Origin: an uncultured Eubacteriales bacterium
GTDB lineage: Bacteria > Bacillota > Clostridia > Christensenellales > UBA1242
Length of the DNA stretch: 64,000 bases
NCBI GenBank assembly: GCA_902476355.1
Contig: CABSCS010000007.1
Location: 3,503 to 67,502 of the forward strand
Direction of reading: 5' to 3'
In this document: positions 15,137 through 17,793 of the stretch, one piece after another
Position numbering within the stretch: position 1 is the first letter of the stretch
How the letters are laid out: each line of letters opens with the position of its first letter
Made by a program: the position numbers and the translations under genes
The notes under the pieces: model-generated
The model's input: only the letters and a program-made list of their open reading frames with translations
What the model was told of the DNA's origin: nothing
Database searches by the model: none

Positions 15137-15925
15137 ATGCTTGGTGCAATTATTGGTGATTTGGCGGGCTCGATTTATGAGTTTGACCAAATAAAACAAG
15201 TTAAACCTATAAAAATGCAACATTTGATAGAGAAAAATGCGTTTTTTTCAGACGACACAATCTTGACAGTTGCGGTTGCCGACGCACTTTTGTCTGGCAA
15301 AGATTTTGAAACAAAAATCAAAGAATATGCCAAAAAATATCATTCATATACTCCCGATTTCAAGCCATATTTCAAAACTCCTTTTTCGCCAAACTTTATG
15401 GCTTGGGTAAATGGGAACGAAAGGGGAACAAGTGCCGGAAACGGCGCAATGATGCGTGTTTCTCCAATTGGTTTTTGGTTTGAAACAGAAGAGGATGTGA
15501 AGAAGTATGCACGCCTTGCAACAGAGTGTTCGCATGGTTGTGAAGAAGCAATAAAGTGTGCAGAGATTGTGGCTATCATAATTTTCTTTGCAAGAAAAGG
15601 GCTTTCAAAAGAGCAAATTAAACAGAAGTTGAATTTGAAAATTAAAAAGCTAAAAATTGAAAAGTTCAACTATCTTTGCGCTGAAACTCTTGATGTTTGC
15701 CTTTATTCGTTTTTTGAAACAAGCAGTTTTGAAAATTGCATCAAAACAGCACTTTCTTTTGGTGGCGACACCGACACAAACGCTTGCATTTCTGGAAGCA
15801 TGGCAGAGGCGTTTTATGGAATTGATGAAAACATCAAAAACCAAGCAAAACAAAAACTTTCGCCCGACCTTTTAAATGTTGTTGAAAGATTTTATCAACA
15901 TGTTGAAAATAAAAGAAAAATATAA
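15137..15925 (+). CDS. ADP-ribosylglycohydrolase (DraG/ARH) family protein
   Basis: MLGAIIGDLAGSIYEF.., FSDDT, and the C-terminal GGDTDTNACISGSMAEAFYG metal-site motifs. Start abuts the upstream stop (TAAATG). Confidence 0.8.
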   Translation: MLGAIIGDLAGSIYEFDQIKQVKPIKMQHLIEKNAFFSDDTILTVAVADALLSGKDFETKIKEYAKKYHSYTPDFKPYFKTPFSPNFMAWVNGNERGTSAGNGAMMRVSPIGFWFETEEDVKKYARLATECSHGCEEAIKCAEIVAIIIFFARKGLSKEQIKQKLNLKIKKLKIEKFNYLCAETLDVCLYSFFETSSFENCIKTALSFGGDTDTNACISGSMAEAFYGIDENIKNQAKQKLSPDLLNVVERFYQHVENKRKI

Positions 15926-15933
15926 AAATCACA

Positions 15934-15971
15934 TAAAAAAAGCACCCAAGCGATTACTTGGGTGCTTTTTT
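15934..15971. terminator. bidirectional terminator between convergent genes
   Basis: aaaaaaagcacccaag-cgatta-cttgggtgctttttt. Confidence 0.75.
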
Positions 15972-15980
15972 GTTGCAAAT

Positions 15981-16643
15981 TTATTTTTCAAGTGAGGGAA
16001 TAAAATTTTCTGAAACTTTCTGATTTAAAACAATTTTGTCTCGGTTATAAACCACAACAATATGACCGTTGTTTTTTGGTGTTTGACGAATTAAAGCGTC
16101 ATATCCAAGAGTCACGGCTTTAACCATATAATCGCCTTGTTGGTGCATGAAAAAGTATAAATAATCAAGGTCGCTTTGGGTGAGAAAGCCGTCAAATTTT
16201 TGATTTAGAGTCTTTATAATTTTGTTTTGGTCGCGGAAAAACTCGTGGTTTAAAATTTTTGGACTTGTAAGTCTTGCATCTTCGCCAACCTTGCCCGAAA
16301 GAATATTCACTCCGAAAAATGAGTTCAGTTTGGAAAGGCGGGTATAATAGTTTGCATAATATTTTTTTGTCGCAAAATAGATTCCATTTCCAAGTGCTGC
16401 CGCTTTGTGAACTCTTTGAAATTTGCCCTTTGCAAAGTCGTAAACATATTTGCAAAAATTGAGTTTGTCGCAGTTAAACCCGCGATAAATTGCCATGCCT
16501 TTTACTTTTGCATATTCTTTTGGTGGAAGCAGTTGTGGAAGTTTTTCATCAAGAGAATATAAATGATAAAAACCACTTGAAAGAGTTTCCTCTGTAAGTG
16601 TTCGATTTTTAATATTAAATATCAATTCTTCAATTTCGTCCAT
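15981..16643 (-). CDS. hypothetical protein with PARP-like GxGIYFA segment (possible ART-fold)
   Basis: Start set to the ATG at 16643, because the TTG at 16679 is part of a consensus -35 box. Contains ..AIYRGFN.. and ..LGNGIYFATKKYYANYY.. (compare the PARP donor-loop FGKGIYFAD..SKSANY). Function not established. Confidence 0.35.
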   Translation of the reverse strand: MDEIEELIFNIKNRTLTEETLSSGFYHLYSLDEKLPQLLPPKEYAKVKGMAIYRGFNCDKLNFCKYVYDFAKGKFQRVHKAAALGNGIYFATKKYYANYYTRLSKLNSFFGVNILSGKVGEDARLTSPKILNHEFFRDQNKIIKTLNQKFDGFLTQSDLDYLYFFMHQQGDYMVKAVTLGYDALIRQTPKNNGHIVVVYNRDKIVLNQKVSENFIPSLEK

Positions 16644-16650
16644 CGCAAAC

Positions 16651-16679
16651 ATTATAGCAAACAACTTTCTTTGTGTCAA
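16651..16679 (-). promoter_or_regulatory. consensus promoter abutting the ATG (leaderless transcript predicted)
   Basis: Minus strand: TTGACA-17 nt-TATAAT-gtttgcg-ATG. There is no room for an SD. Confidence 0.6.
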
Positions 16680-16764
16680 TATGCATGGTTTTAGAGAGTG
16701 AAAAAGGTTGGACGGTTCCGGTTAAAAAGGGAAAAGAAAGTGGCGGACAATAATAATTGTGCAA

Positions 16765-16796
16765 AAGAAAAACCACCATATTTTGGTGGTTTTTTG
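16765..16796 (-). terminator. terminator after the 16816..17214 gene
   Basis: aaccacca-tatt-ttggtggtt flanked by A and T runs. Confidence 0.7.
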
Positions 16797-16815
16797 TGGG
16801 TTTTTCTTGAAAAGA

Positions 16816-17214
16816 TTAGACAACAAGTGGAAGAACAATTCCAAGAAGAACAACTAATAAAAGAACAATATAAAGAACTTTCCAAACAGTTTGTTTAGGT
16901 GCAACATAGCGCCATGCAAGAACTGCAACAATGCAAATTGCAAGAGCGGTTGCGCAGTCTTTCAAAACTGAAACAACTTTAAAGTTCACGCCACAAAGAG
17001 CAAGGATAGATGCAACCAAATATAAAATTGCCATTGCTCCAATGCACCAGAAACTGATTTTGTTGAGTCCCCAAGTTCTGATTCCTGAACTTCTTTTTGT
17101 TGTTTTCTTTGATGAAGTTGATGAAGAAGATGTTTGTTTTGTTTCGGTTGTTTTTGTTGTCTTTTTTGCTGTTGATTTTGCAGGTTTAGATGCTGATTTT
17201 TTTGCTTCTGCCAT
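16816..17214 (-). CDS. hypothetical small membrane protein with Lys/Thr/Ser-rich N-terminal tail
   Basis: RBS aaaggagaaaa. The N-terminal ~45 aa are K/T/S-rich, followed by three hydrophobic helices. Confidence 0.6.
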   Translation of the reverse strand: MAEAKKSASKPAKSTAKKTTKTTETKQTSSSSTSSKKTTKRSSGIRTWGLNKISFWCIGAMAILYLVASILALCGVNFKVVSVLKDCATALAICIVAVLAWRYVAPKQTVWKVLYIVLLLVVLLGIVLPLVV

Positions 17215-17299
17215 AATTTTTCTCCTTTGTTTAAATTCGATAATATTTTATCACAAAGCAAAATAAAAAGATAGCAAATGAAAAATATTTTTTCAAAAA

Positions 17300-17758
17300 C
17301 TATCTTTCAGGTTCTTCGCGAACATTTTGGTCAAGTTTTGTTGAAACCAATTTGAATCTTTCTTTTGTCAAAACAAGGTCTCTTGCACCATCGAGCACAT
17401 AACTTGAAAGCCAGTCTGCCTTGAATTCTTCAACGGGGATTGCATATTCAATCTCGGTTGAAACTGGCTCTTCATAGCCGTGTGGGGGATAGAATCCTTT
17501 TCCGCGGTGTAAAAACAAAATGTGGGTTGGAATTTCAAAAGCGCAAAAATAAAAATCTTGCGAATATTCACGATAAAGCGTGCGGATTTCTTGCATGCCA
17601 TTCGCACTTTTGTAAAAGTGCAAATATTTGTCAAAACCATTATATTTGTGTGTGTTTTTGCCGTTGTTGAACATTTCATAGCGTGCACCAAGAAGAAGCA
17701 CACGATTGTGTCTGATGTTCAAAAGTTCCTCACGGCTCAAATATCTATAAACTCTCAT
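17300..17758 (-). CDS. hypothetical protein with pertussis/cholera-toxin-like R / S / ExE ADP-ribosyltransferase motif layout
   Basis: Start at the ATG at 17758, since the TTG at 17800 lies inside the promoter. MRVYRYLSREELL.. compares with PT S1 VYRYDSRPPEDV. ..HFYKSA.. follows about 46 aa later and ..TEIEYA.. about 51 aa after that. Motif-level inference only. Confidence 0.4.
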   Translation of the reverse strand: MRVYRYLSREELLNIRHNRVLLLGARYEMFNNGKNTHKYNGFDKYLHFYKSANGMQEIRTLYREYSQDFYFCAFEIPTHILFLHRGKGFYPPHGYEEPVSTEIEYAIPVEEFKADWLSSYVLDGARDLVLTKERFKLVSTKLDQNVREEPER

Positions 17759-17764
17759 GCCACT

Positions 17765-17793
17765 ATTATATAACCCTTTCACGCATTTTTCAA
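17765..17793 (-). promoter_or_regulatory. promoter abutting the ATG (leaderless transcript predicted)
   Basis: Minus strand: TTGAAA-17 nt-TATAAT-agtggc-ATG. Confidence 0.55.

Follow-up and report, generated by a model that had tools for sequence, protein, structure and literature searches.

We analyzed a 64,000-nucleotide stretch of DNA from an uncultured Eubacteriales bacterium (assembly GCA_902476355.1, contig CABSCS010000007.1, positions 3,503 to 67,502; hereafter the window) and a block of four genes within it. An ADP-ribosylglycohydrolase (ARH) gene on the plus strand faces three genes on the minus strand, here called B, C, and D. A first-pass annotation made from the sequence had proposed these four open reading frames (ORFs) as a candidate reversible ADP-ribosylation module, and all four were confirmed at ARH 15137–15925, B 15981–16643, C 16816–17214, and D 17300–17758. 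B and D plausibly represent two new families of the ADP-ribosyltransferase (ART) superfamily beside an ARH that resembles BAH of the Bxa/BAH/Bsi system, and coupling between them is plausible. To our knowledge, reversible ADP-ribosylation in bacteria is known from few systems, namely DraT/DraG, DarTG, Tre1/Tri1, and Bxa/BAH. The composition seen here is undescribed: it is stand-alone and non-phage, has two different predicted ART folds, and is predicted to be leaderless.

Proteins B and D

The start of B was fixed by its homologues at MDEIE, giving a protein of 220 residues (minus strand) in which an N-terminal helical region precedes a predicted ART fold. Searched alone, B had no significant match in Pfam, NCBIfam, PADLOC, PHROGs, or the PDB sequences. 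The family is narrow, with 6 clusters found among 5.8 billion clusters, and an exhaustive HMMER profile search returned 21 representatives at E ≤ 1e-3. An AlphaFold2 (AF2) model built from a 22-sequence alignment had a predicted local distance difference test score (pLDDT) of 87.7 and a predicted template modeling score (pTM) of 0.85. The best 50 Foldseek matches to this model in the PDB were all ARTs (50/50) and include PARP2 (probability 0.97), PE-like toxins, AcrIF11, MbcT, PARP13, diphtheria toxin (DT), and tankyrases. When a profile of the family was compared with the PDB, the untrimmed version was swamped by spurious designer-PPR matches to the N-terminal helices, which trimming to the core cured; the core-trimmed profile gave 34 weak matches at E ≤ 10, of which 30 were PARPs or DT-like proteins. 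In the profile alignments to the PDB, iYRG of B lies on the strand-1 His motif and fGnGlYF on GKGIYFA. Four of the 22 B-family members had sub-threshold matches to ART-PolyVal (PF18760) that spanned the core (best E = 6.8e-4, profile positions 20–126 of 140), with a best score of 20.8 bits, below the 31.2-bit cut-off. Among the relatives, two had sub-threshold matches to PARP (PF00644) at 0.026–0.072 and two matched DUF3990, another ART-clan family. Judged by its model, B is a predicted distant branch of the PARP/DT/ART-PolyVal (H-Y-[EDQ]) side of the ART superfamily, and we regard an ART fold as very probable.

Conservation within the family points to a candidate active site. G87 and D182 never vary among family members as distant as about 20% identity, and R54, G85, Y89, K118, G180, N200, and R201 are near-invariant. 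These residues are laid out as R54 on strand 1, G85-x-G87-x-Y89-F-A on strand 2, K118, G180-Y-D182-A, and N200-R201. The PARP-like GNGIYFA segment that had drawn attention to this ORF is real, with G87 invariant and G85 and Y89 nearly so, and nowhere else is the family as well conserved; Y89 is replaced by Cys in three members. Of the PARP H-Y-E triad, B retains Y89, has R54 in place of the strand-1 His, and, in an alignment made by eye, has no conserved acidic residue at the position of the strand-5 Glu. ART-PolyVal is defined by His on strand 1, Tyr on strand 2, and Asp on strand 5 and has been grouped with Tox-ART-HYD2 (PMC5512222). Of this H-Y-D triad, Y89 and D182 are conserved and strand 1 carries Arg. 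Because D182 is invariant and R54 and Y89 are near-invariant, we read B as a putative R-Y-D variant of the H-Y-D type. B thus resembles ART-PolyVal and Tox-ART-HYD2 in its predicted ART fold, in the strand-2 Tyr, and in having an Asp that is probably the third catalytic residue (PMC5512222). It differs from ART-PolyVal in that it has no match to the PF18760 hidden Markov model (HMM), has the Arg of YRG and not His on strand 1, and is a stand-alone chromosomal protein that has, in addition, a helical region at the N-terminus and a helical insert of roughly 50 residues.

Elsewhere, domains of the B type form the C-terminal part of long proteins with several domains, singly or in tandem, which is a further likeness to ART-PolyVal (PMC5512222). 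In one such protein, P0040, a canonical ADPrib_exo_Tox domain precedes the B-like one, and there are weak matches to a head-protein PHROG and to an Alt-like PHROG. A second, P0043, has a region weakly matching a phage ParB C-terminal PHROG and then a B-like domain, and a third, P0033, has two tandem B-like copies. We read these architectures, on their domain matches, as probable polyvalent/MuF virion proteins of the Iyer et al. type. P0040, which joins an R-S-E ART to a B-like domain, mirrors the D-plus-B neighborhood of the window. When B and D were searched with tblastn in 50,697 phage genomes, no match was returned.

The start of D was likewise fixed by homologues, at MRVYRY, giving a protein of 152 residues on the minus strand. 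D had no significant match in Pfam, NCBIfam, PADLOC, PHROGs, or the PDB sequences, and neither the Enterotoxin_a nor the Pertussis_S1 HMM matched it. This family is also narrow, with 17 clusters by profile search of the same 5.8 billion. An AF2 model from a 16-sequence alignment had a pLDDT of 79.7 and a pTM of 0.77. The best 25 Foldseek matches in the PDB comprised only cholera toxin A1, heat-labile enterotoxins, and TreX, an Rhs ART toxin, with noise below them. Against BFVD, the matches were small phage proteins at probabilities of 0.99–1.0, one of them annotated as DarT. Invariant residues of the D family are V3-Y4-R5, Y45-x-H47-F48, and E104-Y-A-x-P108, which lie on predicted strands 1, 2, and 5, respectively; catalytic residues of ARTs are carried by strands 1, 2, and 5 (PMC7955679).

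The first-pass annotation had called D a pertussis toxin (PT)- or cholera toxin (CT)-like ORF. Of the R-S-E group formed by the A subunits of CT, heat-labile enterotoxin (LT), and PT and by TreX, members are the only top PDB matches of D. R5 and E104 lie on predicted strands 1 and 5 of D, which starts V-Y-R-Y, as PT S1 does; on the equivalent of strand 5, x-A-[IV]-P comes after the invariant Glu. Unlike these toxins, D has no HMM match and conserves neither an STS motif nor the Q/E of Q/E-x-E, and it carries an invariant His on strand 2. The 152-residue protein also has neither signal peptide nor B subunit, and its surroundings show no Rhs or secretion context. Since the S/T motif is not conserved (H47 is invariant instead) and the first position of "ExE" is variable (EIE, EVE, LTE, ITE, and others), D is, on its model, best described as a putative minimal R-x-E ART-like fold and not as a member of the CT/PT family. 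An ART fold for D is probable. A profile-profile comparison of B and D gave a probability of 0.3 and no relationship, so the two are not paralogues.

The suggestion that two of the minus-strand ORFs are ART-like stood to the extent that both model as ART folds; neither reaches any ART HMM threshold. For B in particular, no ART HMM matched, including PF00644 and PF18760, and its Foldseek scores are weak in absolute terms (E of 0.016 at best, or about 0.02, and a TM score of about 0.35). The Foldseek scores of D are weak as well (E ≥ 0.04, probability ≤ 0.6, TM score 0.36–0.45). These values and, for D, the departures from the R-S-E and ExE patterns count against reading the two proteins as ADP-ribosyltransferases.

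The ADP-ribosylglycohydrolase and its phage relatives

The gene at 15137–15925 (plus strand, 262 residues) was described at first as a clear ARH, and this was confirmed. It matched Pfam ADP_ribosyl_GH (PF03747) at 113.6 bits against a 26.2-bit gathering cut-off (E = 1.8e-32), PHROGs phrog_6572 at 3e-46, and ARH3 in the PDB at 3.7e-16, with the catalytic and metal-binding motifs in register. Intact motifs include E15, the Glu of GDxxGxxxE, D39-D40-T41 (DDT), and D211/D213/T214 (GGDTDT), all of which align with ARH3 and with the ARH of Bacteroides phage Versailles. By its sequence, then, this is a bona fide ADP-ribosylglycohydrolase with the catalytic Glu and metal ligands intact, and it looks catalytically competent. 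The ratio of nonsynonymous to synonymous substitution rates (dN/dS) is about 0.2. It falls below the cut-offs of two NCBIfam equivalogs, DraG (TIGR02662, 59.6 vs 337.05) and Tri1 (NF041672, 50.7 vs 490).

Full-length homologues with 30%–36% identity occur in Bacteroidota phages. The Versailles ARH is 32% identical over its full length (262 vs 257 residues, E = 1e-45), and the two proteins share the N-terminus MLGAIIGD. In Versailles (L026, 4001–7740), the ARH gene is followed by a 107-residue ORF and then by a convergent gene for an 869-residue protein, in which a MuF head-morphogenesis domain on the N-terminal side is combined with ADPrib_exo_Tox on the C-terminal side (652–840, E = 2e-16). 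A Porphyromonas gingivalis phage (L025, 4001–6846) has an ARH and an ORF of ~107 residues convergent to a MuF protein whose C-terminus matches nothing and may be a further toxin type. The Versailles layout matches the published Bxa/BAH/Bsi system (PMC11699363). There, Bxa is a MuF polymorphic ART toxin of a B. stercoris prophage, 869 residues long with its ART domain at 621–869; it is neutralized enzymatically by the adjacent ARH, BAH (catalytic residue E15), and sterically by the small protein Bsi (PMC11699363). BAH is described as ARH1-like and removes N-linked ADP-ribose (PMC11699363). By this analogy, the ARH subfamily has a characterized member that erases the marks of an ART encoded convergently with it, the geometry of the putative pair in the window. 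The domain type of B comes, on our reading, from the same pool of phage virion effectors.

The window shares with Bxa/BAH/Bsi a short-form ARH with Glu at position 15, placed beside and convergent with a putative ART-encoding gene, the absence of a type VI secretion system (T6SS), a type VII secretion system (T7SS), or a macrodomain, and a gut anaerobe as its source. Its likeness to BAH was measured through the Versailles ARH, and BAH itself was compared by its published description. The differences are several. B is a 220-residue stand-alone protein of predicted R-Y-D, PolyVal/PARP-like type without a MuF domain, whereas Bxa is a C-terminal R-S-E ADPrib_exo_Tox on a MuF head protein. The window has no prophage context, and the surrounding genes are housekeeping genes. 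No Bsi-like ORF lies between ARH and B, which are separated by a 55-bp spacer that holds a terminator only. The ARH can be lost in a related locus (L003, below), and the block has an additional predicted ART-fold gene, D, plus the membrane protein C. The view that the arrangement matches no described system therefore has to be qualified, because an ART–ARH pair without T6SS, T7SS, or macrodomain has already been published (PMC11699363) and the ARH of the window is homologous to that of Versailles; the particular composition has not been described.

Two ideas about the phage homologues were discarded. An hhalign comparison of the B profile with the MuF proteins that face an ARH homologue in these two phages found no match, so neither carries a B-like toxin by this search. 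Nor are phage ARHs routinely found beside ARTs: a recognizable ART was present in only one of six distinct neighborhoods (Versailles), another (the Porphyromonas phage) had the MuF protein with an unrecognized C-terminus, and four of the six had neither ART nor MuF.

Gene arrangement, related loci, and insertion site

Promoter searches found TTGACA-17-TATAAT with a TG ahead of B (16651–16679, minus strand, 12/12) and TTGAAA-17-TATAAT ahead of D (17765–17793, minus strand, 11/12). The -10 hexamer ends 7 nt ahead of the ATG of B and 6 nt ahead of that of D, and neither gene has a Shine-Dalgarno sequence. Among loci related to the window, which we number with the prefix L, the spacing at B is kept in L001, L003, L006, L011 (uncultured Clostridia bacterium UMGS1774), L017, and L018 despite diverged flanks, and the spacing at D is kept in all. 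From this geometry the B and D mRNAs are predicted to be leaderless, which would explain the inconsistent starts of public gene callers (98, 151, 176, 186, and 223 residues). An apparent truncation of D in L001 was dismissed on inspection: the 98-residue call is a start error, and the 152-residue ORF is intact.

C (minus strand, 132 residues) consists of a K/S/T-rich N-terminal tail followed by three hydrophobic segments and has no family match in Pfam or NCBIfam. It always follows D in the related loci. Its three-transmembrane region is 88%–100% identical across lineages where D is only about 50% identical, and the tail varies in length; C is, from its sequence, a predicted conserved small membrane protein. 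The gene has a Shine-Dalgarno sequence and a weak promoter-like site (9/12), so it may be co-transcribed with D. Of the three separate promoters initially assigned to the minus-strand genes, those of B and D are well supported and that of C is weak. A terminator-like hairpin directly 3' of C (16767–16795, minus strand) has a 12-pair palindromic stem between T and A runs and parts C from B. The terminator reported between ARH and the facing genes was also recovered: it is a bidirectional, intrinsic-terminator-like palindromic hairpin at 15936–15971, common to ARH and B, with a 16-pair stem (6 GC pairs) and A- and T-runs on either side.

B and D are intact in all seven full-length related loci (7/7). 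Values of dN/dS were 0.11–0.19 for B and 0.24–0.37 for D, compared to 0.07–0.14 for the reference genes folD and His_Phos, with dS near saturation for some pairs. B and D are under purifying selection and are real genes. D is the fastest-evolving gene of the neighborhood, at 48%–68% identity vs 66%–98% for its neighbors. B is 82%–84% identical to the copies in L006, L011, and L018 and 70% identical to the copy in L001. The housekeeping flanks show the opposite order (L001-type vs L006-type: SpoU, 90% vs 84%; His_Phos, 86% vs 78%), and this discordance between B and its flanks suggests recombination or allele exchange at B.

The content of the segment varies among lineages. In L001 and L002, the intergenic slot between C and B is occupied by a gene for a 1265-residue DUF285/leucine-rich repeat (LRR) surface-type protein (L001, 5995–9792), and in L003 by one for a 176-residue polytopic membrane protein (L003, 11012–11542). 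The genes for a HIT-like protein and for a protein with HTH_3, AAA_28, and CYTH domains (HTH-kinase-CYTH), both upstream of ARH in the window, are present in some lineages only. Since the same slot carries different cargo in different lineages, the segment from p149, a conserved 149-residue protein, to the tRNA genes is a cargo insertion hotspot. The HTH-kinase-CYTH gene (13820–15136, plus strand) encodes 438 residues that match Pfam AAA_28, which is NadR-type P-loop kinase-like, at 2.6e-20, HTH_3 at 9.3e-13, and CYTH at 5.3e-08. It is inserted between HIT and ARH and is found in the window and in L017, which is of the same species, only; it is absent from L001, L003, L006, L011, and L018.

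The block also lies next to a tRNA-derived repeat. tRNA-Glu (18410–18484) and tRNA-Met (18491–18567) are encoded on the minus strand (ARAGORN, Rfam), and an Rfam search over the 17.8–18.8 kb gap found these two tRNAs and nothing else. The last 24 nt of tRNA-Glu, at 18410–18433, are copied exactly at 18106–18129 (two matches, none expected), which confirms the att-like scar of the first-pass annotation. The 280 nt between the two copies have an unusually stable fold (z = -5.5) and a terminator hairpin at the end. Because the duplication is limited to the window, L017, and L006, it represents either a mini-insertion that varies among strains or what is left of an integrative element that has decayed. 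An island bounded by this att repeat was ruled out, as just the 280 nt lie between the two copies and B, C, and D are all beyond them.

Over 12–21 kb of the window, G+C content is low, at about 35%–40%, and both flanks of the block consist of housekeeping genes. Those before it encode aspartokinase, DHDPS, a SpoU methylase, a branch-1 histidine phosphatase (His_Phos), and p149, and those after it are tRNA-Glu, tRNA-Met, folD, thyA, dfrA, and gmk. The site is a strain-variable chromosomal spot of an uncultured human-gut Clostridia bacterium, between the His_Phos/p149 array and tRNA-Glu/tRNA-Met-folD-thyA-dfrA. As had been stated at first, no secretion signal, T6SS or T7SS context, or macrodomain was found near the block, and integrase, phage, and plasmid genes were not found near it either. 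In PADLOC-DB, ARH, C, and D had no match, and B had a chance-level match (0.0061) to a type II restriction endonuclease model.

Ahead of ARH, a co-directional array at 12050–13700 comprises the branch-1 histidine phosphatase, the overlapping family-less 149-residue protein, and the HIT-like protein, and may be a nucleotide or ADP-ribose-metabolite processing set. The N-terminus of the HIT-like protein has a CPTC sequence resembling a zinc ribbon, and its gene is limited to the window/L017 and L001/L002 lineages. Further upstream, a 223-residue ORF at 11269–11940 has a GreA/GreB C-terminal domain (E = 4e-08) and is not in any related locus examined.

Possible coupling of the hydrolase to B and D

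On the mechanism we propose, B, and probably D, would be cytoplasmic NAD+-dependent mono-ADP-ribosyltransferases. They would have descended from effector domains of phage MuF/polyvalent virion proteins and would now be fixed stand-alone chromosomal genes, expressed from strong leaderless promoters. The convergent ARH would most likely be the eraser of ADP-ribose set by B and D on cellular targets, limiting self-modification, as BAH does for Bxa. It would be a loosely coupled, dispensable partner and not an obligatory antitoxin. We consider this mechanism, which is built by analogy, evenly balanced between right and wrong. That ARH is coupled to at least one of B and D is a tentative claim, which we place somewhat short of even. 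Either could be its writer: B is adjacent, and D is of the R-x-E type, relatives of which make the N-linked ADP-ribose that BAH removes. A more elaborate version would be a domesticated circuit of two constitutive, leaderless, cytoplasmic ARTs (one R-Y-D, one minimal and CT-like) with a BAH-like ARH eraser, acting from the chromosome in non-lethal, reversible signaling; we think this improbable. Such a two-writer/one-eraser circuit would differ from toxin–immunity, toxin–antitoxin, and DraT/DraG systems. The likeness to DraT/DraG, Tre1/Tri1, and DarT/DarG is one of concept, an ART reversed by a neighboring hydrolase, and the ARH of the window shares its superfamily with DraG and Tri1. The window differs from these systems in having no nitrogenase, T6SS, or macrodomain context, in not being co-operonic, and in its non-conserved co-occurrence.

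Much of the comparative evidence tells against coupling. ARH and the minus-strand genes converge and have promoters and terminators of their own, and ARH is not co-operonic with B or D. In L003, ARH is absent and a p148 gene lies 99 bp after B, with B, C, and D intact and under consensus promoters; barring another neutralizer elsewhere, B and D can therefore be tolerated without ARH. Synteny of the four genes is confined to close relatives, in which the whole 20 kb is syntenic, including folD, thyA, His_Phos, and SpoU, and for that reason it carries no information. Genome and metagenome scans with closer B alignments returned close relatives only. Among distant contigs, a small sample in which many contigs are short, B homologues (L012, L015, L024) had no ARH alongside and never occurred with D, and D homologues (L008, L009/L010, L019–L022, L023) had no ARH alongside and never occurred with B. 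The conserved co-occurrence across genomes that the first-pass annotation had put forward as a check was thus not seen in this small sample, where ART–ARH adjacency is limited to one narrow lineage. The scarcity of recognizable ARTs beside phage ARHs and the tight junction of ARH with its upstream gene, described next, point the same way. Of the proposed reversible ADP-ribosylation module, what stands is an intact, BAH-like ARH and two predicted ART folds; separate transcription, the ARH-free L003, and the lack of distant adjacency speak against the rest.

These observations would fit a locus of unlinked neighbors, in which ARH functions within the co-directional array (His_Phos, p149, HIT, HTH-kinase-CYTH) on ADP-ribose metabolites or modifications made elsewhere and B and D act independently. 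The ATG of ARH (15137) comes immediately after the TAA (15134–15136) of the HTH-kinase-CYTH gene, and its Shine-Dalgarno sequence sits within the 3' end of that gene, so ARH here is probably co-transcribed with it and hence not free-standing; its transcription may start from a promoter at 13771–13800. Wherever ARH is present, it closes the row of genes on the His_Phos-p149 strand, L003 keeps B, C, and D without it, and the hotspot takes unrelated cargo (the LRR protein, the 176-residue membrane protein, HIT, and HTH-kinase-CYTH). Adjacency is uninformative where the whole neighborhood is syntenic, and of the four phage ARH neighborhoods with neither ART nor MuF, one adjoins NAPRTase. The operon link of ARH is, however, not ancestral, because the HTH-kinase-CYTH gene is a recent species-specific insertion. 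In its nearest characterized setting, this ARH subfamily provides enzymatic immunity against an ART toxin whose gene is likewise convergent with that of the ARH, and the chance presence of two ART-fold genes within 2 kb of an ARH seems unlikely. We give the unlinked arrangement a substantial share of belief, at roughly one chance in three. At the other extreme, ARH could be the essential antitoxin of an obligate toxin–antitoxin or abortive-infection module in which B (or D) is a growth-arresting toxin, as in DarTG, Tre1-Tri1, and Bxa-BAH. Pairs of an ART with an ARH or macrodomain antitoxin are established and this ARH is BAH-like; the site is tRNA-adjacent, with an att-like scar and variable cargo, and D evolves fast. 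Yet L003 keeps B and D with consensus promoters and no ARH, the genes are not co-operonic and have no PADLOC matches, the 24-nt att repeats do not bracket B, C, and D, the surroundings are free of integrase, phage, and plasmid genes, and tblastn of B and D against phage genomes was empty. Such a module is very unlikely.

Eraser activity toward B or D would also presuppose that these are enzymes, and one or both may instead be catalytically inactive ART folds, serving as pseudo-enzymes, NAD+/ADP-ribose binders, or scaffolds. The B column aligned by eye with PARP E988, the canonical strand-5 Glu, is hydrophobic across the family and has no acidic residue, and three members have Cys for Y89. The choice of D182 as the likely third catalytic residue comes from conservation and the ART-PolyVal analogy, not from three-dimensional superposition. 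For D, the S/T motif is not conserved and the first ExE position is variable, and neither protein is above any ART HMM threshold. In P0040, the B-like domain comes after a canonical R-S-E ART, as in binary toxins with one inactive ART fold, and strong, constitutive-looking promoters with no obvious antitoxin speak against high toxicity. Set against this, the residues that stay near-invariant at about 20% identity lie on NAD+-binding elements of the fold in B (R54, G85, G87, Y89, K118, D182, N200, and R201), and R5, H47, E104, and P108 do so in D. ART-PolyVal uses Asp (PMC5512222), several active PARPs are without the Glu (PMC7955679), and both genes are under purifying selection. We consider inactive folds unlikely. 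Catalytic activity is modestly favored for B, and for D we likewise lean toward an active enzyme.

Two ART-superfamily families are defined here that curated HMM libraries miss. B would connect ARTs carried on polyvalent phage virion proteins with genes that stand alone in the chromosome, and it suggests an R-Y-D variant of the active site, and D would rank among the smallest cholera-toxin-like ART cores. If B and D are uncoupled from the ARH, they would still be two new ART-like families for databases, and the locus would be a caution that ART–ARH adjacency in a variable hotspot is no proof of a module. If both activity and coupling are true, the block would be a tractable writer/eraser set in abundant uncultured gut Clostridia and an example of the domestication of phage effectors.

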